From Flavobacteriales bacterium (GTDB lineage: Bacteria; Bacteroidota; Bacteroidia; Flavobacteriales_F; PHOS-HE28): a stretch of DNA of 64,000 nucleotides. Below are positions 1-58,995 of the stretch, in pieces. The position numbers were made by a program, and so were the translations under genes. The stretch spans positions 287,522 through 351,521 of the forward strand of contig JADJXH010000004.1 of NCBI GenBank assembly GCA_016715895.1. Reading direction: 5' to 3'. Below the pieces are notes generated by a model that worked only from the letters and a program-made list of their open reading frames with translations, did not search any database and was not told the origin of the DNA. Position 1 is the stretch's first letter. Each line of letters starts with the position of its first letter.

Positions 1-68
1 GTAATCGGAAAGCGGATCATGACGGGCGGCTTCCCCAGTGCCCGGAAGCTCATACCTCTGGACCGAGG

Positions 69-1718
69 TCAGTTGTCGCTGAAGGCGATCTCCACCCACT
101 TGACGCCGTTCCAGACCAGGGTCATCGAATCGTCCTGGGTCAGGCTTCTTCCGAAGAACCCCCCACCGACAGCTTGGGTCGGTGAGTCGGAGATCAGGAT
201 ACCATTGCCGCCAGTGGCGGTGCATTCGATGATGAGGAGCTGGCCGGCTGCCGAACCGGCACCCAGTGCGACCTGGCGAAACCCGGGAGTTCCCGTGGAT
301 CCGATCTGGAAATAGGTCCGATCGGTGGGATCGATCGGGAATCCTGTGAACGTGGCGGTCACCACGGCAGGCGTGGCCGTCACCGCGCCGTTCACATGCA
401 GGGTGGTGGCGGGTGCCGTGGTGCGGATACCCACACGCCCGGTGGCGTCGATCCGCATGCGTTCTCCGCCGCCGTTCACGAACTGGATGTTGCGGCTTAC
501 GGAGTTGTGCCCGATCTGCAACCCCACATCGTTGAGCTCCATGGTGGCGGTATACCCGCTGCTGCTGTTCGCGCGGAACTCGAACTGGGCATTGGTCTGA
601 TTGAAGCGGACCTTTCCGCCCGGCACGTTCACGTCCAGGCCGTTGGCATTGCCCGCCGAGGCATTGGCACTGCCGAAGAGCGCGATGGCGGCACCGTTCG
701 CACTGCTGCCTGACTGAGGACCGAGGAACATGTAGTCCGTGTTGTTGCGATACAGCAGCGCCGCGTTGTCCGCACTGAAGCCACCGTGGAAGAGCGCGCG
801 GCCGACCACATGGAATCGCTCCAAGGGTGTTTGCGTGCCGATCCCCACGCTGGCGGTCACCGTGGCGCCATTCTGGCCGGCGATGGCTCCGAGCACGATG
901 GCGTGGCTCTGGCTCACCTGGGCCCGGGCACCGACCGCCGTGGCATCGGTCAGCGAACCGGAGCCGAATCTGGTCATGAAGCCGAGGCCGGTGTTCCGTG
1001 ATCCGGTGGTGAGGTCGATCCCTGCATCGGTCCCCACGAACGTGTTGCCGAGCCCGGCGCCGTTCAACCAGGACCCGGCACTTCGGCCGATCGCGGTATT
1101 GGCCTGCGAGAACGGCGCGGCCACACCGGCGTTCGCGCCGATGAAGGTGTTGAAGGACCCGTTCGCGTTCATCCGTCCGGCCTCGGCACCGACGTAGGTG
1201 TTGTCCGTGCCCGCCACGGTGGTGAACCGCCCGGCCTCCGCACCGATGCTCACGCCTCTTGTACCGCCGTTCGTTGCGCCGGCCAGGGTCCCGTACGCCA
1301 CGCTCAACACTGGCGCGGCCTTGATGTAGCCGGAGGGAAGGTTGTTCACCCTGAAGTTCAAGCTCTGTGCGTCCGTGGTGCCGATGAACTGGGTGGCCGG
1401 GTCGGTGCCTGAGTTCCCCGCAAGCCGCCAGCCGGGACCCATGCTCAGCGGGGTCCACACCGTGCCATCGAAGTAGAAGAAACCGCCGGCCGTGCTGTTG
1501 AACACCAACAGACTGGTGGCCGGGGCGGGGATGGCGTTCATCTCGGCCGCGGTGACCCGAGGGATCAGCAGGCCGCGCTTGGTGCCGGCGATGGCGCTGC
1601 CGTCGATGTCCAGCAACGCGCTCGGGTGGGGCACCGAACCGTCCACGTTGATCCCGATGTTCTGCGCGGCCAGTGGAAGGGCCGCGGCGAGGACGAGGAA
1701 AAGCTGAAGGGCACGCAT
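69..1718 (-). CDS. Secreted protein with phage tail-fibre-like Gly/Thr/Asn-rich beta-helix repeats
   Basis: N-terminal signal peptide MRALQLFLVLAAALPLAAQ. Long run of degenerate ~14-aa repeats (NTxxGxxAGxxxTTG-like: NTYVGAEAG, NTFIGANAG, NTAIGRSAG, NTFVGTDAG, NTGLGF), then a 'VGIGTQTPLERFHVVG' segment typical of Bacteroidota 'tail fibre domain' proteins. Runs to the window edge at its 3' end (stop at 69). Confidence 0.45.
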   Translation of the reverse strand: MRALQLFLVLAAALPLAAQNIGINVDGSVPHPSALLDIDGSAIAGTKRGLLIPRVTAAEMNAIPAPATSLLVFNSTAGGFFYFDGTVWTPLSMGPGWRLAGNSGTDPATQFIGTTDAQSLNFRVNNLPSGYIKAAPVLSVAYGTLAGATNGGTRGVSIGAEAGRFTTVAGTDNTYVGAEAGRMNANGSFNTFIGANAGVAAPFSQANTAIGRSAGSWLNGAGLGNTFVGTDAGIDLTTGSRNTGLGFMTRFGSGSLTDATAVGARAQVSQSHAIVLGAIAGQNGATVTASVGIGTQTPLERFHVVGRALFHGGFSADNAALLYRNNTDYMFLGPQSGSSANGAAIALFGSANASAGNANGLDVNVPGGKVRFNQTNAQFEFRANSSSGYTATMELNDVGLQIGHNSVSRNIQFVNGGGERMRIDATGRVGIRTTAPATTLHVNGAVTATPAVVTATFTGFPIDPTDRTYFQIGSTGTPGFRQVALGAGSAAGQLLIIECTATGGNGILISDSPTQAVGGGFFGRSLTQDDSMTLVWNGVKWVEIAFSDN

Positions 1719-1786
1719 GGCGGGATCGTTGGAGCCTCAAAGCTCCAGGGCGGGCCAGACGGGCACAATAGAACCTTCGTTGACGA

Positions 1787-2458
1787 TCAGCGCCCGTAGT
1801 AGCGGTTCACCGCCTCGGTGCGGTTGCCCACATGCATCTTCTTGTAGATGCGGTGGATGCTCTGCTTCACCGTGCCCTCACTGACGCCGAACCGGTCGGC
1901 GATCTCCTTGTAGAGGGAACCTTCGGCCAGGAGCTCGAGCACGGCCATGTCGCGATCGGAAAGGCCGGCGGCGACCTGCAGTCCGCCGGCCGGTGCGGGA
2001 CGGAAGTGACGGATCACACGGCGCGCCACGGTCATGCTCATCGGGGCGCCGCCCTGATGGATGTCGAACACGGACGCGGCGATGCGCTCGGGGGATGCGT
2101 TCTTGAGGAGGTAGCCGTTGGCGCCGGCACGAAGGGCCTCGAAGACGAGCTCATCGGTGTCGTTCACGGTGTACATCATGAACTGCGCATCGGGCCATCG
2201 ATGGCGCAGCCCGATGATGCACTCGATGCCGGAGGCCCCGGGCAGGTTGATGTCCATGATGACCACATCGGGCGCTTCCTGCACGTCGGCCGTGGCCAGG
2301 ATCTCCTCGGCCGAACCGTGGACACCGCGAAGCCGGATGCCTTCGGTGGCGATGAACACGGCGCTGAGGACCTCCCGGATCACGGGGTCGTCCTCCACGA
2401 TCCGCAGGGCGATGGGCGGGCGGGCTGCCATGGGGCGAAGGTGGCCGGTGGCGGCCAT
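1787..2458 (-). CDS. Two-component response regulator, NarL/LuxR family (REC + LuxR HTH)
   Basis: REC motifs 'VVIMDINLPGASGIECI'. C-terminal LuxR-type HTH 'LSDRDMAVLELLAEGSLYKEIADRFGVSEGTVKQSIHRIYKKMHV'. Stop is 4 nt from the upstream HK gene. Confidence 0.85.
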   Translation of the reverse strand: MAATGHLRPMAARPPIALRIVEDDPVIREVLSAVFIATEGIRLRGVHGSAEEILATADVQEAPDVVIMDINLPGASGIECIIGLRHRWPDAQFMMYTVNDTDELVFEALRAGANGYLLKNASPERIAASVFDIHQGGAPMSMTVARRVIRHFRPAPAGGLQVAAGLSDRDMAVLELLAEGSLYKEIADRFGVSEGTVKQSIHRIYKKMHVGNRTEAVNRYYGR

Positions 2459-2462
2459 CCCA

Positions 2463-4301
2463 TCAAGCTAACTTTCGTTGCCCGAGGGGCACGGTGAAGC
2501 GCAGATGCGTGCCCCGCCCGACGGGAACGAGCTCCACGCCGCCTCCGATGCCGGCCATGCGCTTGCGCATGTTGGGCAGGCCATTGCCACTGGAGCCGTT
2601 CAACCCCGACAGCCCGCGGCCGTCATCGATCACCTCGATGATCAGGCCCTCTGACCACCGCAGCACCAGGGTCACCCGGGTGGCATCCGCATGCTTCACG
2701 ATGTTGTGCAGCGCCTCCTTCACGACCAGGAAACAATTGCGTCGCTCGGTGGTGCCCACGGTCAGGGACGGCCAGGGACCGTCGGCCTTCACGTCGAGCG
2801 GGATGCCGTGCTCCGCGAGGTAGGTGCGCGCGTGGTTGTTGATGTAGGCCACGAGGTCGGCGAGCTCGCCCTGGTCGTCCTGCAGGGCCCAGATGATGTG
2901 GCGCATGCTGGCCATGAGCTCCTCGGCGCGGCGGGCCTGTTCGCGGAGGAGCGCCTCCCGGTCGATTCGGCTCCCGGGCATCAGGGCCATCTCGCTGCGC
3001 AGCTTCAACCCGCTGAGGCCCACACCAAGGTCGTCGTGCAGATCGCGGCCCACCTGTTCGCGCACCCGCAGCTCGGCGATGGTCCGGTTCTGCCGTTCAC
3101 GCATCAATTCGCTCTCCGCAAGACGACGACGCGTCTTCTGCCTGCCGGAGACGAGCAGGAAGATGACCACGATCACCCCCAGGAGCAGCCCGCCGATGGC
3201 CAGGATGAAGAGGCGGACGACGCGCGCGCGATCCAGCTCGGCGGCGATGCGCTGGCGCTCCAGACGCTCCACCTCCAGGTCGTTGTCCGCGCGGAGCAGC
3301 TCGTCCTGTGCGGCCAGGCCCGACCGGATGTTGCGGGCGGTGATGGTGCTGTCGATGCGGTGCCAGTCCGCCAGATCGGCCAGGGCCCCCTGGACATCCC
3401 CCAGCTGCCTCAGCGTGGCGCTGGCCACACGAGCGAAGTTGCGCTGGGTCACCAGCCCGATGCCGGAGCGGTTCTCCAACAGGTAGGCGCGGGCGCGTTC
3501 CAATGCACGGAGCGCATCCTCCCGCCTCGCGGCGACGGCCAGCGCCCGTGCGCGCCCCACCAGCGCATCCACGCCGATGTCGTGATCGGCGTGTTCGGCG
3601 GCGATCGCGAAGGAGCGGTCATACCGGTGCAGGGCGCTGTCGGCGCGATGCCGCTGCACGGCCAGGTTGCCAAGGCCCCACCAGGCCACGGCGGCGGCAC
3701 GGCCCACCCCGGCCTCCTCGGCCAGGGCCAGCGAACGGCGCAGATGCCATTCGGCACTGCCATGCGCGCCCAGGGTGGTGAGGTAGGTGCCGAGGTTGCC
3801 ATGGATGTGGTGCAGCTCGGTGACGGGATAACGCGCTTCGGGCCGCTGCGGGAACAGCCGCAGGGCCGCCCTGAGGTAGGGCAGGGCGAGCCGGTTGTCC
3901 TGGATGTTCTCGTGCAGCAGGCCCTTCATGTTGAGGACGTTCGCCATCAGCGTGCTGTCGCCGAGCCGGTCGGCCAGCGCTCCGCACGCATCAAGGTCCC
4001 GCATGGCCTCGTTGAAGAGGCCTTCGTAGTAAAGCACCTCGGCGCGATAGCTGAGCAGGTAACAGCGCGCCTCCTCATCGGCCTGCGTGCGAACCAGGGC
4101 CTCGTTGATCAAGCGCAGCGCCGAGTCCGCGTGGAAGGCGTCCATCTGCAGCAGGATGCCCTCCATCCTGCGGTGGAGGTCGGCATCGGGAAAGGGCGGG
4201 AGCTGGCGCATGGTGCGGCCCACGCGCTGCTGCGCACCAAGCGGTGGGACCATGCCGATCAGCACGGCCACGCACATGCAGGCCCTGACGAACGCCGTCA
4301 T
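2463..4301 (-). CDS. Sensor histidine kinase (TPR-like periplasmic region, TM, HisKA_3, HATPase_c)
   Basis: Signal peptide and TPR-like helical repeats. TM segment 'VVRLFILAIGGLLLGVIVVIFLLV'. HisKA_3 box 'DLHDDLGVGLSGLKLRSEMA'. ATPase G-boxes 'VVKEALHNIVKHA...IDDGRGL...GNGLPNMRKRMAGIGG'. Overlaps the upstream RR gene by 4 nt. Confidence 0.85.
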   Translation of the reverse strand: MTAFVRACMCVAVLIGMVPPLGAQQRVGRTMRQLPPFPDADLHRRMEGILLQMDAFHADSALRLINEALVRTQADEEARCYLLSYRAEVLYYEGLFNEAMRDLDACGALADRLGDSTLMANVLNMKGLLHENIQDNRLALPYLRAALRLFPQRPEARYPVTELHHIHGNLGTYLTTLGAHGSAEWHLRRSLALAEEAGVGRAAAVAWWGLGNLAVQRHRADSALHRYDRSFAIAAEHADHDIGVDALVGRARALAVAARREDALRALERARAYLLENRSGIGLVTQRNFARVASATLRQLGDVQGALADLADWHRIDSTITARNIRSGLAAQDELLRADNDLEVERLERQRIAAELDRARVVRLFILAIGGLLLGVIVVIFLLVSGRQKTRRRLAESELMRERQNRTIAELRVREQVGRDLHDDLGVGLSGLKLRSEMALMPGSRIDREALLREQARRAEELMASMRHIIWALQDDQGELADLVAYINNHARTYLAEHGIPLDVKADGPWPSLTVGTTERRNCFLVVKEALHNIVKHADATRVTLVLRWSEGLIIEVIDDGRGLSGLNGSSGNGLPNMRKRMAGIGGGVELVPVGRGTHLRFTVPLGQRKLA

Positions 4302-4933
4302 CGACCGAAGTAGCGGTTCACCGCCTCGGTGCGGTTCTGCACGTGCAGCTTCTCGTACATGCGGTGGATGTGCTGCTTGATGGTGCCCACGGTGATGCCC
4401 AACCGCTCACCGATCTCCTTGTACAACAGGCCTTCGGCCAGCAGCGAGAGGATCTGTTGCTCCCGTTCGGTGAGCCGCGCCCCGTCCACCGGGGCCGTCG
4501 ACCGCGGCCTCAGATGCGCCACCACCCGTCGTGCGACATGGGCGCTCATGGGGCTGCCTCCACCGTGCAGCTCCCTCACCGCCTCGATGATCTCGTCGGG
4601 GGTGGCGCTCTTCAGGATGTAGCCGTTCGCGCCGGCCTTCAACGCCTCGAACACCCGGTTGTCGTCGTCGTGCACGGTGTACATCAGGAACTGCGTGCCG
4701 ACGCACCGCCGGCTCAGCTCGCGCACACAGTCGATCCCGCTCAACCCCGGAAGGTTGATGTCCATGATGGCCACCTGCGGGCAGTTGGTGCCCAGTCGCA
4801 GCAGGGCGTCCTCCGCGCTGCTGTGGGCGGTGAAGAGCTCAAGCCCCGGCTCGTCCCCGAACAGGGTGCGGAGCGTCTCCCGGATGATGGGGTCATCCTC
4901 CACGATGCTCACACGGATGGGATCGGTGCTCAT
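4298..4933 (-). CDS. Two-component response regulator, NarL/LuxR family
   Basis: REC 'VAIMDINLPGLSGIDCVREL'. LuxR HTH 'LTEREQQILSLLAEGLLYKEIGERLGITVGTIKQHIHRMYEKLHV'. ATGA overlap with the upstream HK. Confidence 0.85.
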   Translation of the reverse strand: MSTDPIRVSIVEDDPIIRETLRTLFGDEPGLELFTAHSSAEDALLRLGTNCPQVAIMDINLPGLSGIDCVRELSRRCVGTQFLMYTVHDDDNRVFEALKAGANGYILKSATPDEIIEAVRELHGGGSPMSAHVARRVVAHLRPRSTAPVDGARLTEREQQILSLLAEGLLYKEIGERLGITVGTIKQHIHRMYEKLHVQNRTEAVNRYFGR

Positions 4934-7900
4934 GCGCTGCGAAGGTCCTCCGGCCGGGTCGGACGTCCTATAGAACGAAGGTTAGGGGGGGCTTCCATCG
5001 GCACACGGAAGCGGAGGCAGGCCCCGGGGTGGTCGGGATCCGTGGAGCGCTCCAGGGTGAGCGTTCCGCCCAGGGCCGCGATCCGCCGGCCCATGTTGCG
5101 CAGGCCGTTGCCCTCGGTGGCCTCGGCGTGGGCGGGAGGCCCCGGCCCATCATCCGCGATGCGGACGTCCAGCGCCCCCTCACGCCAGGCCATCACCAGG
5201 CGCACCTGACGGGCGGCGGCATGCTTCACCACGTTGTGCAGGGCCTCCTTCACGACGAGGAAGATGTTGCGCCGCTGCTCCGCGCTCAAGGTCCGCAGCG
5301 GCATCCGCTCCTCCACGTCCACCCGCAGACGGATGCCATGCTCATCGCAATAGCGGCGGGCGTGGTTGGTGGTGTAGGCCACCAGGTCGGCCAGCTCGGC
5401 CTGGTCGGCGTTCATGGCCCAGATGATCTGGCGCATGCTGCCGATGAGCTCCCCGGCGGTCCGGGCCAGGGAGCCGAGGTGCGCGCGTTTGGCGGGGTCC
5501 TGTTCCACGCGAAGGGCCATTTCGCTGCGCAGCTTCAGCGCGCTGAGCCCGGCCCCCAGGTCATCGTGCATGTCCCCGGCGATCCGCATGCGCTCGGCCA
5601 GTACGGCCTGCTCCCGCTCGAACGCCTCGCGCTGCCGCCGCAGCCGCGCATGGAGGTAGGCCTTGAACCCGGCGAAGGCGGCCGCACCGATCGCCAACAG
5701 GGCGAGCGCCCGGAACCACCAGGTGGCGTGAAAAGGGGGCAACACCTGCACGGCCACTGCGGCCTCCTCCGGCGCCCAATGCACGCCGTCAAGGCTCATC
5801 TGCACGACGAGCTGATGCGATCCGGGGTCCAGATCGAACAGATCGATCCGCTTGGCGGCACCGATCTCCTTCCAGGCGGTATCGGCGGGAAGGACGCGGT
5901 AGCGGAAGAGCGGGACCTCACCGGGCATCACGCCGAGGCCGCCCAGTTCGAGCATCAGGGCCTTCCGGTCGGGTTCAAGGACCAGGTCCGCCGGCGCACC
6001 GAGCACGGTCGCATCACCCACGCGGTGGGCGGTGAACACCGGGACCGGCGGCAGCCCGTGTCGTTCGCGCAGGGGATCGTGCAGCAGGATCCGCGGACCG
6101 ACCCCGATGGCGATGCGGCCGTCGGGAAGCTCCACCAGGGCCCGGGAGAACGCCTGCCCGTCCAGTGCCGAGGGCAGCAGCATCGCGGCGAAGGTGGCCG
6201 CGCCCGGTGGTCGACGCGCCAGCCCCTGTGGCGTGGCGGCCCAGATGGTACCGTCCCGCGTGGCGCACAGCGCCAGGATGCGCGTGCCGGGCAGTCCGTC
6301 GCGCCGCCCGATGTACCGCTCGGATACGCCGGCCGGGTCATGCACAACCAGCCCATGCTCATGGGTGCCCAGCCACAGCAGGCCATCCGGACCCTGGGCC
6401 ATGCAGCGCACCACGCCGCCCACATGGGCGCCCGCCGCGTTCATCACGGCCGACCAGCGGCCCGCATGGAACCGGGCCAGTCCTCCGCCGTTGTTCAGCC
6501 CGGCCCAATGGCCACCGTCGGCCGTGGAGAGCCAGCTGAGCAGCATGAGGTTCGGCAGCCGCCCCCATGGACCGTCCGCGGTGTCCACGCGCTGCGCTTC
6601 ACCCGTACGCGGGTCCACGCGCCACAGCCCGCGCTGCCAGGTGCCGAGCCACAGCGCATCATCGGTGCGCTCTGCGAAGGTGAAGGCGCTGACCGCACCG
6701 TTGGGCACCAGCGCGGTGATGCCGTCGGCGGGACGAAGGGTGGCGGCGTGTACATCCAGCTCGGCCAGGCCACGGCCCGTGCAGACCAGCACGCGCCCAT
6801 CGACCGTGGCACCGAAGGCATGCACCAGGTTGGCGGAGTAGCGGACATCATCGGGCGCTCCAGGCACCTCGACCCGGAGTGCGGTGGATGCGCCGGTCCG
6901 GTGATCGACGAGGTGCACACCACCACCCTCGGTGCCCACCAGCAGCGTATCCTCTCCCCAGGCACGGATGACCGAGACCGCGAAGGGCGACGCATCGAAG
7001 GGAAGGACGGTATGCGCCTGCGCCCCCGGCCGCAGCACGGCCAGGCCCCCTGCGGTCCCGAGCAGGAACACACCGGAGCGCATCGTCCGCAGGCACCCCG
7101 CACGGGTGGATGGCGATCCGATCCCATCCGGTCGCACCTCCGACCAGGGCCCGTTCGGCGCGCGTACGAACAGGCGGTGCGTCCAGGTGGCGATCCAATG
7201 GCGGCCCTCGGCATCGAAGGTCTGGCAGCGCAGCTCGAACCGATTGGGCTGTTCCTCGACATCGGGCAATGCGGTAAGGTCGCCGGTCCGCAGGTCGTAC
7301 CGGAACAGCGTGTAGGGGCCATGCCGCATGTACCACAAGGCCTGGTCATGCACGACCGGCGCCCCGGTGGCCGAGAGGTCCGACCATGGCAGCATCGTGC
7401 TGTTGCGGTGGTCCGTCCACCGATCGGTGGCCGCGTCCCACGACGCGATGCCCCGGGCCGTGGCGGCCCAGATGGTGGCCCTCGGTGCATCCCAGAAGAG
7501 CGAGGAGTTCGATCGCATGCGGCCGGCTGGTCCCTCCCCGGGTGGACGGTCCTGCACGCTGTGGAGCCGCCCGTTCCGCGGGTCGCCACGGAAAAGCCCC
7601 GCCTCGGTGACCACCCAGAGCAGGGTGTCGCCCACGGCCACCACCTGGCGCATGCGGTTGGCCTGCAGGGCGTCGTTGCCCGAGGCCGTGACCCGCACGT
7701 TGACGAAGGTGCCGGAGCGGGGCACGAACCGGGACAGCCCGCTCATGGTGGCGAACCAGAGGGTGCCATCAGGCGCCTGGTCGATGCAGTTGACCTGATC
7801 ATGCGCCAGGCTGCTGCTGTCGACCGGGTCATGATGGAACGTCCGCACACGGGTCCCCTCCAGCCGGGCGAGGCCATCGGTGGTGCCCACCCAGACGAAC

Positions 7901-8044
7901 CCATCACGGTCCTCGAAGACGGCGTGCACCTCGTCGGACGGCAGGCCCTGCTCCACACCGATACGGTCGAACAGCAGCTGGGCGTCCATGGCGAGGACCC
8001 TCAGCAAGGTGGCGATCAGCAGGATGGGACGCATGCGGGCCGGG
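4930..8044 (-). CDS. Hybrid-architecture sensor histidine kinase (periplasmic two-component-regulator beta-propeller repeats + Y_Y_Y + HisKA_3 + HATPase_c)
   Basis: The ORF track extends to 9183, but the plausible start is the ATG giving 'MRPILLIATLLRVLAMDAQLLFDRIGVEQGLPSDEVHAVFEDRDGFVWVGT', which is the typical beginning of Reg_prop proteins. Many 'DG.LW.GT..GL' propeller repeats. TM 'WWFRALALLAIGAAAFAGF'. HisKA_3 box 'DMHDDLGAGLSALKLRSEMA'. HATPase 'VVKEALHNVVKHA...DDGPGPP...GNGLRNMGRRIAALGG'. Confidence 0.8.
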
Positions 8045-8106
8045 CGGAAGCGCACAGGGCAAAGCTCGGCAAGCGGGACACCCGGGCGCGGGTCTATTTT
8101 TCGGGC

Positions 8107-9093
8107 ATGTTGACCGACCGGCACGGCCGCACGCACCGCAGCCTGCGCATCAGCATCGTGGACAAGTGCGACCTGCGCTGCACCTACTGCATGCCGGAGG
8201 ATCAACATTTCCTGAAGCGCGAGGAGTTGATGACCCGCGCGGAGATCCTCACCATCGCACGGCTCTTCGTGGAGCGCTATGGGATCGCCAAGATCCGGCT
8301 CACCGGAGGCGAACCACTGGTGCGACCCGATGTGGTGGACATCGTGCGCGACCTTTCGCAGCTGCCGGTGAAGCTGGGACTCACCACCAACGCGCTCAGT
8401 CTGCACAAGCACCTGGATGGGTTGATGGATGCCGGTCTGAAGGGGGTGAACGTCAGCCTGGACACCTTCGATGCGGATCGCTTCCGGAAGATCGCGCGAC
8501 GCGATGGTTTCGACACGGTGCATGCCAACATCCTGCTCGCCCTGCGGAAGGGCCTCCGGGTAAAAGTGAACATGGTGGTGATGCGCGGGGTGAACGACGA
8601 CGAGCTCCTGCGCTTCGTGGAGCTCACCCGCGACCACGACCTGCACGTCCGTTTCATCGAGTTCATGCCCTTTGCGGGCAATCAATGGGGCCGCGATCGC
8701 GTGTACACCTACGCCGAGATGCTGGGCCGCATTGGCAGTGCGCATGCCTTCGAGAAACTGAACGACGACCCGCACAGCACGGCCAAGGCCTACCGGGTAC
8801 CGGGCTGGCCCGGCACCTTCGCGGTGATCAGCACGGTGACGGAGCCCTTCTGCGGCACGTGTGACCGGCTGCGGGTGACCGCGGAGGGCAGGATGCGCAA
8901 CTGCCTCTTTGCCCGCGAGGAGACCGACCTGCTCTCCGCCCTGCGCCGTGGAGAGGACATCGCGCCCTTGATCGAGGCGAATGTGCTGGCCAAGCACGCC
9001 ATGCTCGGCGGCCTGCCGCCCTTCAGGCCCGAGAAGCAGGAGGAGGTCCTGCACGACCTGAGCGAACGGCCGATGGTGGCGATCGGGGGATAG
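8107..9093 (+). CDS. moaA: GTP 3',8-cyclase MoaA (radical SAM; Moco biosynthesis step 1)
   Basis: Motifs 'ISIVDKCDLRCTYCMP' (CxxxCxxC radical-SAM cluster) and C-terminal 'FCGTCDRLRVTAEGRMRNCLF' (second cluster). 328 aa, typical MoaA size. Confidence 0.9.
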   Translation: MLTDRHGRTHRSLRISIVDKCDLRCTYCMPEDQHFLKREELMTRAEILTIARLFVERYGIAKIRLTGGEPLVRPDVVDIVRDLSQLPVKLGLTTNALSLHKHLDGLMDAGLKGVNVSLDTFDADRFRKIARRDGFDTVHANILLALRKGLRVKVNMVVMRGVNDDELLRFVELTRDHDLHVRFIEFMPFAGNQWGRDRVYTYAEMLGRIGSAHAFEKLNDDPHSTAKAYRVPGWPGTFAVISTVTEPFCGTCDRLRVTAEGRMRNCLFAREETDLLSALRRGEDIAPLIEANVLAKHAMLGGLPPFRPEKQEEVLHDLSERPMVAIGG

Positions 9094-9095
9094 TT

Positions 9096-9131
9096 CATGT
9101 GCACATGTGCTCATGAGCACATGTGCACATG
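9096..9131. terminator. Perfect 36-bp palindrome between the convergent moaA and NAP-like genes (candidate bidirectional terminator or protein-binding site)
   Basis: CATGTGCACATGTGCTCATGAGCACATGTGCACATG is its own reverse complement. It lies exactly between the moaA stop (9091-9093) and the minus-strand gene stop (9134-9136). Confidence 0.5.
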
Positions 9132-9133
9132 CC

Positions 9134-10156
9134 CTAGAGTTCCTGCTCGTAGTAGATCTTGTAGAACTTCCGGCCCTGGTCATCCACCCCCCGCTCGATC
9201 TTGTTGCGGTCGCCGTGGATGTAGATGTGGAAGTTCTTGTCCAGTTTCAGCACGCTCTTGAACACACGGGCCTGCTTCTTCACGGCGTCGGCGCTGATGG
9301 CGAAGCGGTCCTCCAGGTCCACGGCGCGCTCCTCCTGGAAGCGGTCGCCGAAGCGCTCGAAGGAGCCGATCACCTCCTCGCTTTGGAACACCTCACGGGC
9401 GAAGGAGCTCCGGTCGAACTCGGTGTTGTCCTTGAAGTACTGGACGGAGCGGTTCAGCAGGTCGATCTGGTCGGCCTTGGGGATCTCGTAGTCCTGCGGC
9501 AGTTGCTCGGTGATGAACGAGCGCGTCATCTCCAGCAGGTTATTGGTGCTGTTCACGTGGTCCTGTTTGGCACGGAGCCCGGCGAAGGCCTGCTGCCAGA
9601 ACCCGCTGCGCGGATCGTCATCGATCACCAGCACGGTGTGCTCACCCGGGGTGAAGAGCACCAGCAGGGCCTGGTCCGGCCTGCGCCCCCCCAGCCCGCG
9701 TTTGAGGCGCATGCCGATGTGGCCCCCACTGACCTTGCTCTCCAGGAAGACCTCCTTGTCGTCGAACTTGAGGATGCCCAGCGCATCATGCACCGCCCCG
9801 GCCAGCTCCACGGCGTGGAAGCGGACGACGAAGAGGTCACCGCCGCGCACCTCATGCTCCGCGGCGGTGTCGATGAGGAGCTTGGCGATGGCCCGGGACA
9901 CCCCGACCAGGTCCTTCGCCTTCGCCGCCTTGGCGCACAGGGCCTGAAGGGCATTGCCAGCACCCTGTGCTCCGTCGCCGAAGGTGTGGGTGACGGCCAC
10001 CGAGGCGAAGGGCTTCAGGAAGAGGCGGCGCAGGAACTCCTGCTCCTCGGGCCCCTGCAGCACGGCGCTCACGTCGGAGAGCACGCTGGGCGATCCATCC
10101 GTGCCCACCCGGTGCAGCACCAATTCCTCCACCATCGCCTCCTTGCCGTTGATCAT
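9134..10156 (-). CDS. Nucleoid-associated protein, NdpA/YejK-like (PF04245-type)
   Basis: 340 aa. Layout resembles NdpA ('ELVLHRVGT' near the N-terminus, 'GGDLFVVRFH' block, charged C-terminal half). The family call is from memory of YejK, not from a search. Confidence 0.45.
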   Translation of the reverse strand: MINGKEAMVEELVLHRVGTDGSPSVLSDVSAVLQGPEEQEFLRRLFLKPFASVAVTHTFGDGAQGAGNALQALCAKAAKAKDLVGVSRAIAKLLIDTAAEHEVRGGDLFVVRFHAVELAGAVHDALGILKFDDKEVFLESKVSGGHIGMRLKRGLGGRRPDQALLVLFTPGEHTVLVIDDDPRSGFWQQAFAGLRAKQDHVNSTNNLLEMTRSFITEQLPQDYEIPKADQIDLLNRSVQYFKDNTEFDRSSFAREVFQSEEVIGSFERFGDRFQEERAVDLEDRFAISADAVKKQARVFKSVLKLDKNFHIYIHGDRNKIERGVDDQGRKFYKIYYEQEL

Positions 10157-10214
10157 GCGTTGCGCGCCTGGCCTGTTGGCGAAGGCGAGGCGGCGAAGGT
10201 ATTGGGGAGGGCTC

Positions 10215-11144
10215 TTACAGCGTGGCCTTGACGCCCGTGCGATAGTCCGTGGGGCGCACGTTCAGCGCCCGCTCCAACTTGCTGCTGTCGAAGCGGTAGT
10301 CGTGCTCGAACTGGTACATCATCTCCTTGTTCTCGCGCAGCACGGGCATGACCAGGCCCATCAGCGAGAGCATCCAACCCGGTGCCACCTGGATCGCGTA
10401 GGGCTTGCCGGCCAGCTCACAGGCCATGCGCACGAACTGCTCGCCGGTCATGTCCTCTTTGCTGGTGAGCGCATGCCACACCTGTCCGTAGGCGGAAGGC
10501 GTATTGCCCAGCAGCGCCACGCTCCTACCAGCATCCGGCGTGTAGGTGAAGGTGTGCACGGCCTTGGCATTGCCCACCCACTGCGGGGTCTTGCCCGCCC
10601 GCAGCCGCTCGAACACCGTGGCGTGGGTGAGGCTCAGGGTCGCGTTCGGTCCGTAGAAGTCGGCCGCCCGGATGATCATGGCCTGCAGCTCGCCACGCTT
10701 CACCTCGTCCATCAAGGTGGTGGCGATGCGGGCCCGCACTTCCCCTTTCCGGCTGCAGGGGTTGTAGGGCGTGTCCTCGGCCATCACGCCGTCCACCCGG
10801 CCGTAGGCGTAAACGTTATCGAAGAAGACCAGCTTTGCGACGTGGCGCTTGCAGGCATCGATGGTGTTGCGCATGACCCGCGGCCATTGGTCGGCCCACA
10901 CGTTGGCATCGTACTTAAGCCCGGCCACCAGGTAGGCGACGTCGCTGCCCTTCACGGCCTCGCTCAAGGCATTGGCATCCAGCAGATCGGCGGAGAACAG
11001 CTCATCGGTGGCGTTCACCTGCTTCGGGTGGCGGCTCACCTGACGGACCTTGTCCGTGTACTGGGGTAGGAGCATGGAAAGTTCGTTGCCGATGACGCCG
11101 TTGGCGCCGAGGATGGTCTGCATGGCCGTGCGTTTGAGGCTCAC
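10215..11144 (-). CDS. NAD(P)-dependent epimerase/dehydratase (SDR) family protein
   Basis: N-terminal Rossmann motif 'ILGANGVIGNEL'. Overall SDR/NmrA-like length and composition. Sits between the Moco genes and the NAP-like gene. Confidence 0.6.
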   Translation of the reverse strand: MSLKRTAMQTILGANGVIGNELSMLLPQYTDKVRQVSRHPKQVNATDELFSADLLDANALSEAVKGSDVAYLVAGLKYDANVWADQWPRVMRNTIDACKRHVAKLVFFDNVYAYGRVDGVMAEDTPYNPCSRKGEVRARIATTLMDEVKRGELQAMIIRAADFYGPNATLSLTHATVFERLRAGKTPQWVGNAKAVHTFTYTPDAGRSVALLGNTPSAYGQVWHALTSKEDMTGEQFVRMACELAGKPYAIQVAPGWMLSLMGLVMPVLRENKEMMYQFEHDYRFDSSKLERALNVRPTDYRTGVKATL

Positions 11145-11213
11145 AAGCTAGGATCGCCCCAGGCGCATCGCCCAACCGTTCCTGTAATTGACAGTGGATG
11201 GATCACACCCTGA

Positions 11214-12131
11214 TCACATCCCATGCCTGAACGCATGTTCCTGCACCTTCACCACATGAAGCACGAACGGAAAAAGCGCATCCATCGTCTCCTGCGCCCC
11301 ACGCGTGGATCCCGGCAGGGTGATCACCAGCGTTCTTCCGATCATGCCGGCGATGCCCCGGCTCATCATCGCCCAGGGCATGCGCTCCTGGCCATAGCTG
11401 CGCGCGGCCTCCATGATACCGGGTACCTCCCGGTCCATCAGGGGTGCGATGGCCTCGGGCGTGCGGTCGCGGGGCGAGAGGCCCGTGCCGCCTGTGGTGA
11501 GGATGAGGTCCAGGCCCTCGGTTGACCATGCGTTCACCCTGTTGGCGATCTGCTCAGGCTCGTCAGCGCACACGGCCTGCACGGGCACCTCAACACCCAG
11601 CTGCGCCAAGCGTTCCACGATCGCCGCGCCCGCCTTGTCCTCCTTCTTCCCACCGGCCACCCCATCGCTGATCACCAGCACGGCCGCCTTCACGGGCGTG
11701 TCGAAGCGGTCCTTCCAGTCGCTCTTGCCGCCCTTCTTCTCCAGCAGCCGGATGCCCGCGATCACCACGCCCTTGTCGATGGGCTTGAGCATGTCGTAGA
11801 TGGTGAGGGCCGCCACGCTGGCACCGTGCATGGCCTCCACCTCCACCCCGGTGCGGTAGATGGTGCGCACCCGCATGGTGACGACGATCTCCATCGCCCC
11901 CACCTCGAACGTGCACGCCGCATGCTCGATGGGCAGCGGATGGCAATCGGGGATCAGCTCGTGGGTCTTCTTTACGCCGAACAAGGCCGCCACGCGGGCG
12001 CTCTCCAGCACATCGCCCTTGGGCACCTGCTTCCCGATAACTGCGGCGATCGTCGCAGAATTGGAAACGGTCACCAGCGCGGTCGCCGTGGCCTCGCGCA
12101 GGGTGGTGGGCTTGTGGGTGATGTCGATCAT
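11214..12131 (-). CDS. moaC: Bifunctional MoaC (cyclic pyranopterin monophosphate synthase) / MogA-MoaB-like molybdopterin adenylyltransferase fusion
   Basis: N-terminal half has MoaC motifs 'KGDVLESARVAALFGVKKTHELIPDCHPLP...TGVEVEAMHGASVAALTIYDMLK'. C-terminal half has MogA/MoaB motifs 'AAVLVISDGVAGG...LILTTGGTGLSPRD...LPGSTRGAQE'. Start placed at the internal ATG (MIDITHK); the ORF track begins 23 codons earlier. Confidence 0.8.
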   Translation of the reverse strand: MIDITHKPTTLREATATALVTVSNSATIAAVIGKQVPKGDVLESARVAALFGVKKTHELIPDCHPLPIEHAACTFEVGAMEIVVTMRVRTIYRTGVEVEAMHGASVAALTIYDMLKPIDKGVVIAGIRLLEKKGGKSDWKDRFDTPVKAAVLVISDGVAGGKKEDKAGAAIVERLAQLGVEVPVQAVCADEPEQIANRVNAWSTEGLDLILTTGGTGLSPRDRTPEAIAPLMDREVPGIMEAARSYGQERMPWAMMSRGIAGMIGRTLVITLPGSTRGAQETMDALFPFVLHVVKVQEHAFRHGM

Positions 12132-12212
12132 GAATGCAGGCGAATAGCGAATGGTCATTGGAGAATGGAACCAGGATCGGCACCATTCGCTAATCGCCAA
12201 TGACCATTCACC

Positions 12213-16165: not shown

Positions 16166-18979
16166 TCAGCGCACCGTCAAGCGGGTCACGCGCTGGCGAT
16201 CGGCGGAGGCGAGGCGGACGATGTACTGTCCTGCGGCCAGATCGCTCACATCGAAGGTGAGGCGTCCCGCGTTGCCGGCACCGCCCACACTGCGCACCAC
16301 ACGACCGCTGAGGTCGGAGACCTCGACGGTGACGCGGGCTTCGCTGGCGGGGAACACCACGGCCACGGACTCATCGGCCGGGTTGGGCATCAGCTGAAGT
16401 GCATCCGCACCATCGTTCTCCCCGATGCCCACGGAGCTCACGGTGACGATGGCCTCGGTGCGCGGGCTGGCGCAGTCCACGCCGAAGGCCTCCACCTGCC
16501 AGTCGTAGAAGAAGTAATAGTACTGCAGGGCGTTCTGCCCACCGATGTTGGTGCCGGTGATGGCGCCGAGGGTGCCCAGGGCGTAGGGGTACGTGGGATT
16601 GCTGCCGAGGCCGTCCCGCCACAGGTTCGGCGTGCCCACGCAGCGCAGGGCATAGTTCCCGGGGCCCGGCACTTCCAGGCCGAGGGTCACCACCTGAGTG
16701 CCGGTGGGGATGTTGGGCGTGACGCTGGCCACCGTGCTGTTGTCGCTCATGTCGATCACCGAGATGGTGCGCACACCGGCGGTGTTGGAGTAGACCTTCA
16801 CCGTGTTGATGGTGAAGCGCTCATACGCATCGAACAGCAGGTAGAAGCCATCGTTCTGGTGGTACTGACCGCTGGTGGTGTTGTCCACACGGCCTCCGCT
16901 GGCCGCGCCACCTCCGAAGGTGTTCACATCCTCGGCCCAGAAGCTGGTGGTGCTGTTCACGAAGGGCGTCGTCCACGTGTTGCCGCCGCCCAGTGCGGTG
17001 CCGCCGGAAGGCAGATCGTACCAGGTGATGGCCGCGCCCGTGGCACTGATATCGGCCGTACCCGGTCCCAGGATCGTGGCGCCCGTGGTGGCCGGTGCAT
17101 CAGGCGTGTCGATCACCTCCAGTTCCACAGGGGCGGAGGTGAAGTTGCCACAAAGACCGGCCACGGTCACCGTGATCGGTCCGTCCGCTGTGGCCTGCAC
17201 CGTCTGCGTGGTGGCGCCGTTGCTCCACGTGTAGCCGTTCGCCGGCGAACAGGTCAACTCCACCGCACCTCCCTCACAGAAGGTGGTCTCGCCGTTCACC
17301 GTCACTGTCGGCGTCTCATCGGGGTTCTCGGTGACGGTCACCGAGGCCTGGCTCCAGCAGCCCGTACCATCATCGATGGTCACCGTGTAGGTACCCCCTG
17401 CGGTGACGTCGATGCTCTGGGTGGTGGCGTTGGTGCTCCAGGTGTACTGGAAGCCGGGGTTCGCCGTGAGCGTCAGCGGGGTTCCGCCTGCGCAAACGAC
17501 CAGATCCCCACCCGCCGCGATCTCGGCCACCGGCGCGATGCAGATGCCTTCGAGGAGGGTGATGGTCTGGTCCGCGTCGATGTCGGTGTAGCTGTCCACC
17601 TCACCGCTGGGCCATTGCACGACCAGGCTGTCCACCTCGGTGATGGAACCGAGGCCGAAGTGGAGGGTGGCGCTGTTCACCACACCATAGCTCTCGCCGC
17701 TGCGCACCTCGCGCACCTGGATGCCCCAGGGGCCCCAGATCTTCACCTTGGCACCGATGGCCTCCTTGTTGCTCTGCACGCCCACCAGATCGATGTCCAG
17801 CCAGTGGTTCCCGTTCGGGGTGTTCATCCACAGCCGGTCGGGGAAGCTGGGGTCGCCGTCCACATAGGCATCCCCATAGCTGGCGTACACGTCCGTGAAC
17901 CCGTCCTCGTTGAGGTCGCCGAAGGCGAAGCTCAGCATGTTCTTGCCGGACGGGAACATGGAGGGCACCTCGGTGAACGTGCCGTCCCCGTTGCCCTTGA
18001 AGTAGTAGTCCGCCGAGCCGGTCATGATGTCCAGCCAGCCGTCATTGTCCAGGTCGCGGAACAGGCCCTGCAGGAAGAAGCCGGTGTAGGAGTCCAGGCC
18101 GCTGCCCGCCGTGACGTTCACGTAGTTGTTCGTGCCGTCGTTCTCGAACAGCATCAGCGTGGTGCTGTGGGTGGTGCTGAAGGCGTCGAGGTCGCCGTCG
18201 TTGTCGTAATCGCCGAAGTCGGTGGTCCACACCTGCTCGCGGTTCTGAAGACCGTAGTTGATGGCCAGGTCGGTGTAGTTGTTGTTGCCGTCGTTCACGA
18301 ACAGGCGGTCCCAGCGCCGGGGGTCGTTCGGGTTGTTCACGCCCTGGCGGCAGTGGCTGATGTGCAGGTCGATGTCGCCGTCGTCATCGAAATCGGTGAA
18401 CACGCTCGCGTAGTTCCCGCTCATGTCCGAGGCCGGGTTCGTGTTCCAGTCGATGAAGTTGCCATCGTAGAGCAGGTTCCCCGTGCCGTCGTTCATCCAG
18501 ATGTTGTTCGGACCCACATCGTTGCAGGCGTACAGATCGGCCCAGCCATCCCCGTTCATGTCGGCGATGCTCACACCCTGGTGGAAGATGGTGGGACCAT
18601 TGAGGTCGACGAGCTGGGACACGCCGCGCGAGGTGATGCGCAGGTACCGCGTGACGGACACGCCGCTCATGATGTCCTTGTGGCCGCTGCGGTCCATGTC
18701 CGCGATGGCCCAACCCCATTGGTTGCTGCCGTCCACCACCCCGTAATCGATCGTGGTGAAGGAGTGGTCGGGGTTCTGGTACAGGATGTACACATGCTTG
18801 CTCATGTCGAGCTGCACGATGTCATCCAGCCCGTCGAAGTCCATGTCCACCACGGCCATGCAACCTCCGCTGCTTGCGTTGTGCGACAGGTTGGTCGACT
18901 GGTTGGTGAACACGGGCTGCGCAAAAAGCCCGGTCGCGGACAACAGGAGCGCCGCCGCGGATGAGTAACGATGGACCAT
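16166..18979 (-). CDS. FG-GAP/VCBS (CRTAC1/ASPIC-UnbV-like) repeat protein with PKD-like modules and a type-A T9SS C-terminal sorting domain
   Basis: Signal peptide. Repeated 'DxDxDGxxD' FG-GAP calcium-binding loops (DFDDDGDIDL, DYDNDGDLDA, DLDNDGWLDI, DLNEDGFTDV). ASPIC/UnbV-like 'LWMNTPNGNHWLDIDLVGVQSNKEAIGAKV'. C-terminus 'LMPNPADESVAVVF...VEVSDLSGRVV...LAAGQYIVRL' is a canonical Por_Secre_tail. Confidence 0.8.
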   Translation of the reverse strand: MVHRYSSAAALLLSATGLFAQPVFTNQSTNLSHNASSGGCMAVVDMDFDGLDDIVQLDMSKHVYILYQNPDHSFTTIDYGVVDGSNQWGWAIADMDRSGHKDIMSGVSVTRYLRITSRGVSQLVDLNGPTIFHQGVSIADMNGDGWADLYACNDVGPNNIWMNDGTGNLLYDGNFIDWNTNPASDMSGNYASVFTDFDDDGDIDLHISHCRQGVNNPNDPRRWDRLFVNDGNNNYTDLAINYGLQNREQVWTTDFGDYDNDGDLDAFSTTHSTTLMLFENDGTNNYVNVTAGSGLDSYTGFFLQGLFRDLDNDGWLDIMTGSADYYFKGNGDGTFTEVPSMFPSGKNMLSFAFGDLNEDGFTDVYASYGDAYVDGDPSFPDRLWMNTPNGNHWLDIDLVGVQSNKEAIGAKVKIWGPWGIQVREVRSGESYGVVNSATLHFGLGSITEVDSLVVQWPSGEVDSYTDIDADQTITLLEGICIAPVAEIAAGGDLVVCAGGTPLTLTANPGFQYTWSTNATTQSIDVTAGGTYTVTIDDGTGCWSQASVTVTENPDETPTVTVNGETTFCEGGAVELTCSPANGYTWSNGATTQTVQATADGPITVTVAGLCGNFTSAPVELEVIDTPDAPATTGATILGPGTADISATGAAITWYDLPSGGTALGGGNTWTTPFVNSTTSFWAEDVNTFGGGAASGGRVDNTTSGQYHQNDGFYLLFDAYERFTINTVKVYSNTAGVRTISVIDMSDNSTVASVTPNIPTGTQVVTLGLEVPGPGNYALRCVGTPNLWRDGLGSNPTYPYALGTLGAITGTNIGGQNALQYYYFFYDWQVEAFGVDCASPRTEAIVTVSSVGIGENDGADALQLMPNPADESVAVVFPASEARVTVEVSDLSGRVVRSVGGAGNAGRLTFDVSDLAAGQYIVRLASADRQRVTRLTVR

Positions 18980-19071
18980 GTGAATGTTCGTGGTTGGGTG
19001 GTTCGGTTCCTTGCGGATCCCCCAAAGCTAGGCGGCTACCGCAGGCCGGACAACTGATCGTTGGCAGGTGC

Positions 19072-23767: not shown

Positions 23768-23838
23768 CGGCCAAATGTACCCGGGCCCTCAGCGGAAGGT
23801 CAGCGGCCTCCGGGCCGCTCATCAACGATCGGATCTTG

Positions 23839-40329: not shown

Positions 40330-40402
40330 GCCGTTCCAGGCCGGGAACCTTGACGGGTGGATCCCGTATGCACGGCGCGAACCACCCCGCTCTTCGGTGG
40401 AC

Positions 40403-58767: not shown

Positions 58768-58995
58768 AACCTGACATGAGCACTGCGCGGTTCAACTGCC
58801 CTGGTCGGAGAAGATCCAGAGCTTGTGATGGGAGTTCATGGAAGCCATGGCAACAAGGGGTTTGCGTTCAATGGTGACCCCAACCTACCATGCCCGACGC
58901 CCGATCGCCAGCGCGATCCGGGCAACGGTCGCGACGAAGAGAAGAACGGTCGCTCCGGTGGTGCCGCTATTTTCGCCGGCATGGGGTCGCGGCGG

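Follow-up and report, generated by a model that had tools for sequence, protein, structure and literature searches.

We analyzed two pairs of two-component genes and an adjoining gene for a fiber-like protein in DNA from an uncultured, high-GC Flavobacteriales bacterium (assembly GCA_016715895.1, contig JADJXH010000004.1). The stretch analyzed, called the window here, contains 64,000 nucleotides (nt) and covers positions 287,522 to 351,521 of the contig. Five co-oriented open reading frames (ORFs) with third-position GC contents of 0.80 to 0.89 occupy positions 69 to 8034 of its minus strand. They encode a propeller sensor kinase (HK1), a response regulator (RR1), a TPR sensor kinase (HK2), a second response regulator (RR2), and the secreted fiber-like protein (PTL). 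An earlier note, made from the DNA letters, had called these five minus-strand genes and their domains, and the calls were borne out by ORF, third-position GC, Pfam, and NCBIfam analyses. The new result of the present analysis is a promoter/operator-like element that is shared by RR1, RR2, and the fiber gene (Table 1).

The gene boundaries differ in part from those first proposed. A start for HK1 at position 8044 is out of frame. HK1 begins instead at the ATG at 8034, with a GTG at 8055 as an alternative. A long ORF at 4930-9183 was rejected as an artifact; toward its 5' end it runs antisense to a gene resembling moaA. The divergent gap between HK1 and moaA, which begins at 8107 on the plus strand, is 72 nt. 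Overlaps of 4 nt had been claimed for all junctions. They are present between HK1 and RR1 and between RR1 and HK2 (ATGA in both cases), but HK2 and RR2 are separated by a gap. The HK2 stop codon is at 2463-2465. The first RR2 ATG, at 2458, leaves a gap of 4 nt and gives a protein of 223 amino acids (aa). The ATG at 2431 leaves a gap of 31 nt and gives 214 aa. The start at 2431 is likelier because gene callers took the 214-aa start in a 99% identical copy of RR2 in locus L001 (L numbers denote the loci compared with the window), as in the 214-aa calls of L001 and L002 generally, and because a promoter-like box lies between the two ATGs. The gap between RR2 and the fiber gene is 68 nt (1719-1786), as first described.

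An extension past position 1 of the window, proposed in the earlier note, was available from L001, where tag (Adenine_glyco), fdhD, GrpB, and YCII come next. An intrinsic terminator scan of positions 1-9300 found no terminator-like hairpin between the five genes. The sole terminator-like site in this range is on the plus strand in the gap between HK1 and moaA. A sigma-70 promoter scan of the same range returned 0 promoters, and such a scan is uninformative for Bacteroidota promoters. An Rfam scan of the whole window gave no match.

Table 1. Genes and candidate regulatory elements of the locus, followed by other features of the window
Feature	Position	Strand	Description	Basis or placement
HK1	4930-8034	-	1034-aa propeller sensor histidine kinase	Pfam, hydropathy, start codon, DHp typing
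RR1	4298-4933	-	211-aa NarL/LuxR-type response regulator	Pfam, NCBIfam
HK2	2463-4301	-	612-aa TPR sensor kinase	Pfam, hydropathy, ortholog alignment, DHp typing
RR2	1787-2458 (or 2431)	-	NarL/LuxR-type response regulator, REC + GerE	Pfam, NCBIfam
PTL gene (fiber-like protein)	69-1718	-	549 aa, secreted	
P_PTL	1738-1784	-	GTCAACGAAGGTTCTATTG, N20, GAGCTTTG	In RR2-PTL gap; ends 19 nt before PTL ATG
P_RR2	2436-2479	-	AACGAAAGTTAGCTTG, N20, CACCTTCG	Overlaps HK2 stop; ends 4 nt before ATG 2431
P_RR1-like	4940-4983	-	AACCTTCGTTCTATAG, N20, GACCTTCG	Within HK1 3' tail; ends 6 nt before RR1 ATG
-7-like box, no dyad	8060-8067	-	GAGCTTTG	In HK1-moaA gap; 25 nt 5' of HK1 ATG
moaA-like gene	8107-9093	+	Molybdenum-cofactor gene	
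NA37 nucleoid protein gene	9134-10156	-		
Epimerase gene	10215-11144	-		
MoaC-MoCF_biosynth fusion gene	11214-12200	-	Molybdenum-cofactor gene	
T9SS cargo gene	16166-18979	-	FG-GAP_3, UnbV_ASPIC, Ig_7, Por_Secre_tail	
Dyad-less TTG-N20-TAGCTTTG	19023-19054			5' of T9SS cargo gene; 43 nt before ATG
Large ORF	23749-27384	+	1211 aa	
First giant protein gene	35675-40282	+	1535 aa	
Second giant protein gene	40397-45406	+	1669 aa	
LytTR regulator gene	58825-59754	+	Second propeller two-component system	
LytS-type kinase gene	60617-63649	+	Second propeller two-component system; Reg_prop/Y_Y_Y, His_kinase	

HK1 matches Reg_prop (E = 5e-23), HisKA_3 (E = 6e-11), and HATPase_c (E = 9e-8) in Pfam. By hydropathy, it contains an N-terminal hydrophobic segment, periplasmic Reg_prop beta-propellers, a transmembrane helix at residues 776-794, and then the kinase core. 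Its sensor had been described as a propeller with Y_Y_Y. The Reg_prop part is clear, and Y_Y_Y is present only as a sub-threshold match (E = 0.1, residues 708-765) at the expected place just before the membrane helix. HK2 matches TPR_12, HisKA_3 (E = 3e-6), and HATPase_c (E = 4.5e-8). Its hydropathy profile gives an N-terminal hydrophobic segment, a periplasmic TPR region, one transmembrane helix at residues 366-384, and then the kinase core. HK2 orthologs aligned with 61-65% identity (alignment A2). The sensor domains of both kinases are read as extracytoplasmic because each has a hydrophobic N terminus and one transmembrane helix before the core. Both kinases contain the H-box HDDLG, and the phosphoacceptor His of HK2 lies within LHDDLG.

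RR1 and RR2 match Response_reg (E = 1e-20 and 2e-23, respectively) and GerE (E = 1e-14 and 6.5e-16). The receiver motifs EDD, MDINLPG, MYTV, and GY(I/L)LK are conserved in the regulator alignment. The best NCBIfam match of both regulators is NarL, below threshold. Pfam and NCBIfam thus confirm the HisKA_3 type of both kinases and the NarL/LuxR type of both regulators. Identity is 55% between RR1 and RR2 and 51% between the kinase cores of HK1 and HK2, which points to duplication of a kinase core plus regulator. The HK1-RR1 and HK2-RR2 segments have 66% nucleotide identity where they align.

The DNA 5' of fiber genes that are linked to two-component systems contains an invariant GTCAACnAAnGTTCTATTG, N20, and GAGCTTTG amid spacers that cannot be aligned. 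This PTL-type box ends 13-40 nt before the ATG. In its strict form it has 1 match in the 64-kb window, with 0.02 expected, where it takes up most of the 68-nt gap, and it lies 5' of PTL genes in at least 13 other loci. The same PTL-type boxes are found 3' of RR2-type regulators in 8 loci and 3' of RR1-type regulators in 8 loci. Two PTL genes without a neighboring two-component system (L006 and L045) still have the box.

Both regulator genes are preceded by related boxes. The RR2-type box has the general form GAACGAAAGTTAGCTTG, N20, CACCTTCG and is kept in every RR2-type locus, including loci with a single pair. An apparent N-terminal HLR extension of RR2 is this DNA box (CAC CTT CGC), which is non-coding in L012 and L015. 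The RR1-type box has the general form TAACCTTCGTTCTATTG, N20, (C/G)A(G/C)CTT(T/C)G. It is intergenic in L008, L012, L013, L015, L041, L042, and L052. In the window, the final 18 codons of HK1 (PPNLRSIGRPTRPEDLRSA, positions 4934-4990) cross this box. HK1 in other genomes terminates at the TAA of TAACCTTC. The 18-codon read-through indicates that the 4-nt overlap of HK1 and RR1 is derived in the clade of the window, L010, and L011.

A composite pattern, AAC-N4-GTT-N3-T(T/A)G-N20-A(G/C)(C/A)TT(T/C)G, has 66 matches in 905 kb comprising the window plus related loci. It has 0 matches in each of 20 shuffles. All 66 matches have a spacing of exactly 20 nt and are co-oriented with the two-component genes. 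They lie only before regulator genes of the RR1/RR2 family and before secreted-protein genes. The window contains three copies, before RR1, RR2, and the fiber gene, and no others in 64 kb. Read on the opposite strand, the 10-mer 5' of RR1 (AACCTTCGTT) is identical to that 5' of the window fiber gene (AACGAAGGTT), which is what a protein site with dyad symmetry would show. The box also stands before the gene for a DUF5122 propeller with a type IX secretion system (T9SS) domain (L017) and before that for a Kelch protein (L023). The composite element has no match in the distant PTL loci L053-L058, and the regulators of L054 and L058 are of the LytTR type. The box is lineage-specific. A metagenome scan with the strict PTL-type box retrieved 7 contigs, which are too few to define a regulon. 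An RNA hairpin between the dyad and the -7 box was considered and rejected, as there was no consistent complementarity across the 18 PTL-type sites inspected.

The housekeeping promoter of Bacteroidetes has a TTG at -33, a spacer of 19-21 nt, and TAnnTTTG at -7. We take the TTG of the element to be the -33 box and A(G/C)CTT(T/C)G to be the -7 box, following this consensus. The dyad would then be centered near -41.5, the position of a class-II activator. We infer activation rather than repression by RR1 and RR2 at the element. Unrelated genes, such as the T9SS cargo gene with its textbook promoter of Bacteroidetes type (window 19029), have -33/-7 blocks without a dyad, which suggests that the AAC-N4-GTT dyad is the special part and, on this reading, the regulated one. 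The copy of GAGCTTTG 5' of HK1 also has no dyad and is a candidate for an unregulated HK1 promoter.

The two pairs have nearly identical DNA recognition helices and differ at the residues of the kinase-regulator interface. The helix GT(V/I)KQ(H/S)IHR(I/M)Y.K(L/M)HV.NRTEAVNRY is common to RR1 and RR2 orthologs. The DHp signature is A-G-Q in HK1 and V-E-H in HK2, and across the two groups it is A..G..Q versus V..E/G..H/D. RR1-type and RR2-type receivers differ in alpha-1 (IRETLRSLF versus IRE(V/L/M)L(S/T)AVF), VHDD versus VNDT, and ILKS versus LLKN. Covariation was scored over 41 adjacent kinase-regulator pairs, single-pair loci included. An A-G-Q kinase is followed by an RR1-type receiver in 23 of 23 cases, and a V-(E/G)-(H/D) kinase by an RR2-type receiver in 17 of 17. 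One pair is intermediate. TPR kinases have either DHp type, and the regulator type tracks the DHp type, not the sensor type. The perfect covariation of DHp and receiver signature residues points to two pairs insulated at phosphotransfer, with HK1 signaling to RR1 and HK2 to RR2, and makes the DNA the likelier level of integration.

We fetched 36 loci from GTDB species representatives with the HK2 alignment A2. All of them are from uncultured Flavobacteriales or related Bacteroidota metagenome-assembled genomes (MAGs). These loci and those fetched with fiber homologs were typed by tblastn and a family hidden Markov model. The HK1-RR1-HK2-RR2 cassette is present in 12 loci from about 11 genomes (Flavobacteriales). 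A PTL gene lies directly 3' of RR2 in the window, L003, L008 (the same as L014), L010, L012, L013, and L052, and the contig of L015 terminates just past a fiber-type promoter box. The flanks vary. A Peptidase_C1 gene is upstream in L003 and L008, and the five window genes are placed between moaA on the upstream side and tag on the downstream side. Varied flanks around a kept module argue for selection on the five-gene neighborhood. A PTL gene comes after a single TPR-kinase/regulator pair in L022, L026, and L030 and after HK1-RR1 in L034.

The fiber slot itself is variable. L011 has 95% nucleotide identity with the window over 7.5 kb. In L011 (12518-12753) and L009 (6391-6652), 235-260 nt of unrelated DNA replaces the 1.8-kb box-plus-fiber segment (window 69-1786) between the RR2 stop and tag. 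Neither locus contains a fiber-gene remnant, and the two replacement DNAs are mutually unrelated save for the 12-nt GCGCACCTTCGC. L010 contains a different, 889-aa fiber in the same slot, with DNA homology only at the 5' end. Presence, absence, and replacement at one slot make the fiber gene a strain- and species-variable cassette.

A secreted protein of about 510 aa is encoded 10-30 nt 3' of the fiber gene in L003 (12169-13710), L008 (11287-12816), and L052 (8301-9821) and is absent from the window. It has a weak Por_Secre_tail match in L003 and L008, and no Pfam match is on record for L052. A 509-aa T9SS protein behind the L017 box was considered as a homolog of the T9SS protein of about 510 aa in L008, and the two are not homologous. 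L051 encodes a secreted protein (about 900-2357) directly behind a box, with a short motif that by eye is like one in the L008 protein, so the protein of about 510 aa may regularly belong to the regulon as a second member. L041 and L042, both from MAG Fred_18-Q3-R57-64_BAT3C.352, contain two copies of RR1-HK2-RR2 on different contigs. HK2 and a regulator gene are there split into several tblastn pieces, which may be long-read frameshifts or pseudogenes.

We give a probability of roughly 55% to the following reading, in which two insulated sensor pathways converge at promoters, with autoregulation, and the fiber gene is independently promoted. HK1 (beta-propeller) and HK2 (TPR) would receive different periplasmic inputs, and each would phosphorylate its own regulator. 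The pairs would have arisen via duplication of kinase core and regulator and then diverged at the kinase-regulator interface. RR1 and RR2, with a near-identical recognition helix, would both bind the AAC-N4-GTT dyad abutting the -33 TTG. The signals would be integrated at the promoters, with positive feedback on RR1-HK2 and on RR2, and the fiber gene would be switched on from its own promoter. The earlier note had suggested that the two sensors may act on one output, possibly the downstream surface protein. Synteny, the shared box, and the near-identical helices agree with that suggestion, and the mechanisms it named, an operon and cross-talk or a phosphorelay, are not favored.

Several points weigh against convergence at promoters. 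The window copy of the RR1 box has TAG for TTG and sits within the HK1 ORF, which may leave it without activity in this strain. Both the -33/-7 assignment and the -41.5 position that follows from it lean on the general Bacteroidetes consensus rather than a mapped start site. The covariation is partly due to shared ancestry, as the pairs are phylogenetically non-independent. About 20 loci with a single TPR-kinase/regulator pair have no PTL gene within 10 kb. The closest relatives, L011 and L009, have the four-gene cassette without the fiber gene or its box, so the cassette has other targets or functions. The fiber protein has no T9SS C-terminal domain, lipobox, or beta-barrel anchor recognized by Pfam or NCBIfam that would bring it to the surface or hold it there. 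A different protein might also bind the element, or an alternative sigma factor might read it.

One five-gene operon read from an HK1 promoter, with conserved boxes that have no promoter function, is unlikely. The TTG-N20-GAGCTTTG of the 68-nt gap is invariant across loci with otherwise unalignable intergenic DNA, and the same element stands before the PTL genes of L006 and L045, which have no upstream two-component system. The distance from regulator to PTL gene ranges from 68 to 635 nt in relatives, and the fiber gene and its box are cleanly missing from L011 and L009 with all four two-component genes intact. An operon would fit the common strand of the five genes, the two ATGA overlaps, the short gaps elsewhere, the scan without a terminator-like hairpin between any of the genes, and the location of the damaged RR1 box inside the HK1 ORF. 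Read-through into the fiber gene is possible, as no terminator was found. The single operon of the earlier note is nonetheless not retained, as the fiber gene has its own promoter-like element in the 68-nt gap and both regulator genes are preceded by one too. Independent transcription of the fiber gene, which the earlier note had set against its own model, is predicted from this promoter-like element.

A protein other than RR1 and RR2, such as an alternative sigma factor or an unlinked transcription factor, may instead recognize the element, and the two-component genes and the fiber gene would then be co-regulated targets. We consider this improbable. With its invariable 20-nt spacing and pair of conserved blocks, the element does look like a sigma-factor promoter, but dyad-less -33/-7 blocks at unrelated genes indicate that these features are in line with the housekeeping promoter. 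In the regulator promoters, the -7 block ACCTTCG departs from the housekeeping TAnnTTTG, and the closest relatives have retained the cassette in the absence of the fiber gene. All 66 elements, however, are in loci fetched via these regulators or fiber targets, most of them immediately beside a regulator gene of the family, and the distant PTL loci with LytTR regulators (L054 and L058) are without the element. GerE-type regulators, moreover, typically bind dyads beside the -35 region. Cross-talk or a branched or serial phosphorelay, with either kinase signaling to either regulator, had also been suggested and has a low probability. The four genes are adjacent and paralogous, and DHp helix 1 differs at two small residues (MHDDLGAGLSALKLRSEMAL in HK1, LHDDLGVGLSGLKLRSEMAL in HK2). 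Group-specific DHp residues (A/V, G/E, Q/H) and receiver residues (alpha-1, beta4 loop, beta5-alpha5) nevertheless covary in 40 of 40 typed pairs, including single-pair loci with an unambiguous partner, and Pfam found no Hpt or hybrid receiver domain. The covariation over the 41 neighbor pairs leaves such a relay unsupported.

The fiber protein contains a signal peptide (residues ~1-19), a conserved N-terminal domain (~20-95), and YadA-head-like beta-roll repeats (~105-300). The motif VGIGTxxPxxxxHV occurs twice (~291-305 and ~427-441). The C terminus is formed by a Phage_depo_C beta-sandwich (465-541, Pfam). Its sole hydrophobic segment is N-terminal and consistent with a signal peptide, in agreement with the secreted 549-aa protein first described. 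Phage-tail-fiber-like repeats had also been reported. The C-terminal Phage_depo_C and viral structure matches agree with a fiber, and the repeats themselves fold as a YadA-like head. The structure was modeled as a monomer only. The predicted local distance difference test score of the C-terminal beta-sandwich is 81-89, with one block at 58. A viral structure library gave 114 structural matches at E <= 0.001. Pfam gave no PF13884 match for the S74 chaperone fold that the earlier note had proposed to look for in 69-1718. Pfam and NCBIfam found no T9SS C-terminal sorting domain (Por_Secre_tail, CHU_C). The protein is probably Sec-exported and trimeric. Its layout suggests a likely role as a surface adhesin with a strain-variable tip.

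The window fiber protein probably belongs to the large Bacteroidota family PTL_trimer. More than 1,265 relatives of the protein were detected, most of them in MAGs of Flavobacteriales and of other Bacteroidota. Precomputed domains show PTL_trimer (PF26696), Peptidase_S74, YadA_head, and Phage_depo_C variously combined in these relatives. PF26696 is precomputed for the 97% identical protein P0001 and for most of 120 homologs among the matches listed. It was not reported for the window protein in the Pfam scan at E <= 0.01, for which the library copy may not include the model. Family-wide conservation is concentrated in about 75 residues past the signal peptide and in the VGIGTxxPxxxLHV motifs. 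The 64-kb window contains no further PTL paralog. A prophage origin of the gene was considered and rejected, as there are no flanking phage genes and matches to annotated phages are weak and confined to the repeats. The gene has the two-component genes on one side and, as seen in L001, tag, fdhD, GrpB, and YCII on the other.

The only PDB sequence matches are to the Bdellovibrio MAT proteins Bd3182, Bd2439, and Bd2133 (residues 401-469, E = 8e-5 to 5e-4, phmmer). The matches cover the motif ERMRIDxxGRVGIxTTAPxxxLHV. According to PMC10769870, MAT proteins are chromosomal surface fibers with a signal peptide, a conserved N-domain, a trimeric fiber, and an S74 or alternative beta-sandwich tip. 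The N-domain is beta-rich and about 130 aa long in Bdellovibrio, and the paper describes a capping-loop motif, V-G-G/N-pi-x-x-P-x-x-x-L. The window protein resembles the non-S74 type (Bd2133). It is likewise chromosomal and non-prophage, with a signal peptide, a conserved N-domain, a fiber, and a beta-sandwich tip. It also contains a capping-loop-type fiber motif, and many family members have an S74 tip. The likeness is one of layout and fiber motif, and the conserved N-domain of the window protein is about 75 aa. The host is of another phylum and is no known predator, and the central part is a YadA-like head in place of the beta-prisms solved for MAT proteins. Adjacent two-component regulation is not mentioned in the passages of PMC10769870 consulted, which were not read with this question in mind.

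Other known systems share parts of the locus. Trimeric autotransporters (YadA, BoaA, UspA1, EibD) differ from the fiber protein, which by Pfam and NCBIfam has no YadA_anchor beta-barrel or coiled-coil stalk. Lacking that domain, it cannot use the autotransporter route for export or anchoring. Phage tail fibers and tailspikes (endosialidase-type S74, depolymerases) share the C-terminal Phage_depo_C, but the window copy has no S74 chaperone and no phage genes nearby, and its similarity to phage genomes is weak and in the repeat region only. The window pairs share HisKA_3, the H-box HDDLG, HATPase_c, and a REC + GerE output with NarXL and NarQP. They are not orthologs of NarL and NarX, as they score far below the equivalog cut-offs (e.g., 111-133 bits versus 250 for NarL). 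Hybrid two-component systems of Bacteroides use Reg_prop/Y_Y_Y sensors for glycans, and the HK1 sensor is likewise of the Reg_prop (+Y_Y_Y) type. Unlike those hybrids, HK1 has no REC or AraC domain by Pfam, and the regulators are separate and of the LuxR type, not the AraC type. Literature searches on PTL_trimer and on tail-fiber-domain proteins in Flavobacteria or with two-component systems found nothing relevant.

We inspected eight PTL genes outside the close relatives. They were chosen for long contigs, without a formal background comparison. Seven of the proteins have identities of 32-39%, and for the other two, P0014 and P0046, the identity is 66-72% across one quarter to one half of the protein. 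A two-component system lies within two genes of the PTL gene in five of the eight (L052, L053, L054, L057, and L058). L052 contains the same five-gene module as the window. In L053 (Chitinophagaceae), the PTL gene is flanked on one side by a TPR/HisKA_3 kinase with a GerE regulator and on the other by a propeller kinase of the LytS type with a LytTR regulator. L054 (Patiriisocius hiemis) has a TPR-HisKA_2 kinase and a LytTR regulator beside the PTL gene. In L057, two HisKA_3 kinases and a GerE regulator are divergent from the fiber gene. In L058, a LytTR regulator and a propeller kinase are beside it. L006, L055, and L056 have no two-component system near the PTL gene. Small as the sample is, it suggests that sensor-gated expression is a general property of the fiber family. 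A chromosomal tail-fiber-like protein linked to a two-component system had been called unusual. With more than 1,265 family members and five of eight distant ones adjoining such a system, a chromosomal fiber-like protein beside a two-component system is common in Bacteroidota.

For the viral scan we used the N-domain alignment A3, as the full-length family alignment A1 was too divergent. The N-terminal domain of the family was found in 76 IMG/VR contigs (loci L059-L134). In L062 (5704-7581), it makes up residues ~100-160 of a protein of 625 aa encoded directly after a portal gene. The N-domain is therefore a phage virion module as well as a cellular one.

PTL-type fibers are abundant in Bacteroidota, often several per genome, and are essentially uncharacterized outside Bdellovibrio. 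A broader view, which we hold tentatively, is that PTL- and MAT-like fibers are phylum-wide domesticated phage-fiber adhesins gated by two-component systems with periplasmic sensors. Depending on lineage, the gating systems would combine TPR kinases, propeller kinases, or both with regulators of the LuxR or LytTR type. In the lineage of the window, two insulated sensors would converge on one class of promoters with the dyad, which would also drive the sensor systems' own genes, and the fiber gene would act as a swappable cassette at the strain level. If this is true, such fibers would be inducible, environment-sensing attachment organelles. The components of the locus are ordinary, and the element adds a useful new regulatory detail. 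At 44 nt, this promoter/operator element would tie two sensor pathways, their genes, and the fiber gene together. Along with the repeated association of such fibers with sensor systems and the strain-variable slot, it gives testable handles on the timing of and reasons for fiber expression. The locus may serve as a natural example of duplicated two-component pairs that are apparently insulated at phosphotransfer yet convergent at DNA.

The window contains other features of note. A second propeller two-component system, with a LytTR regulator and a Reg_prop/Y_Y_Y LytS-type kinase, is encoded on the plus strand near its far end. Systems of this class also adjoin fiber genes in L053 and L058. Molybdenum-cofactor genes are split by unrelated genes at 8107-12200, where the NA37 nucleoid protein and epimerase genes lie between the moaA-like gene and the MoaC-MoCF_biosynth fusion. 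The L001 DNA beyond window position 1 includes fdhD. The 1211-aa ORF has a coding-like third-position GC content of 0.91 and no Pfam match at E <= 1e-4. The two giant proteins are tandem paralogs with IgGFc_binding, Reelin_subrepeat-B, Ig_7, and the CHU_C type IX secretion signal.

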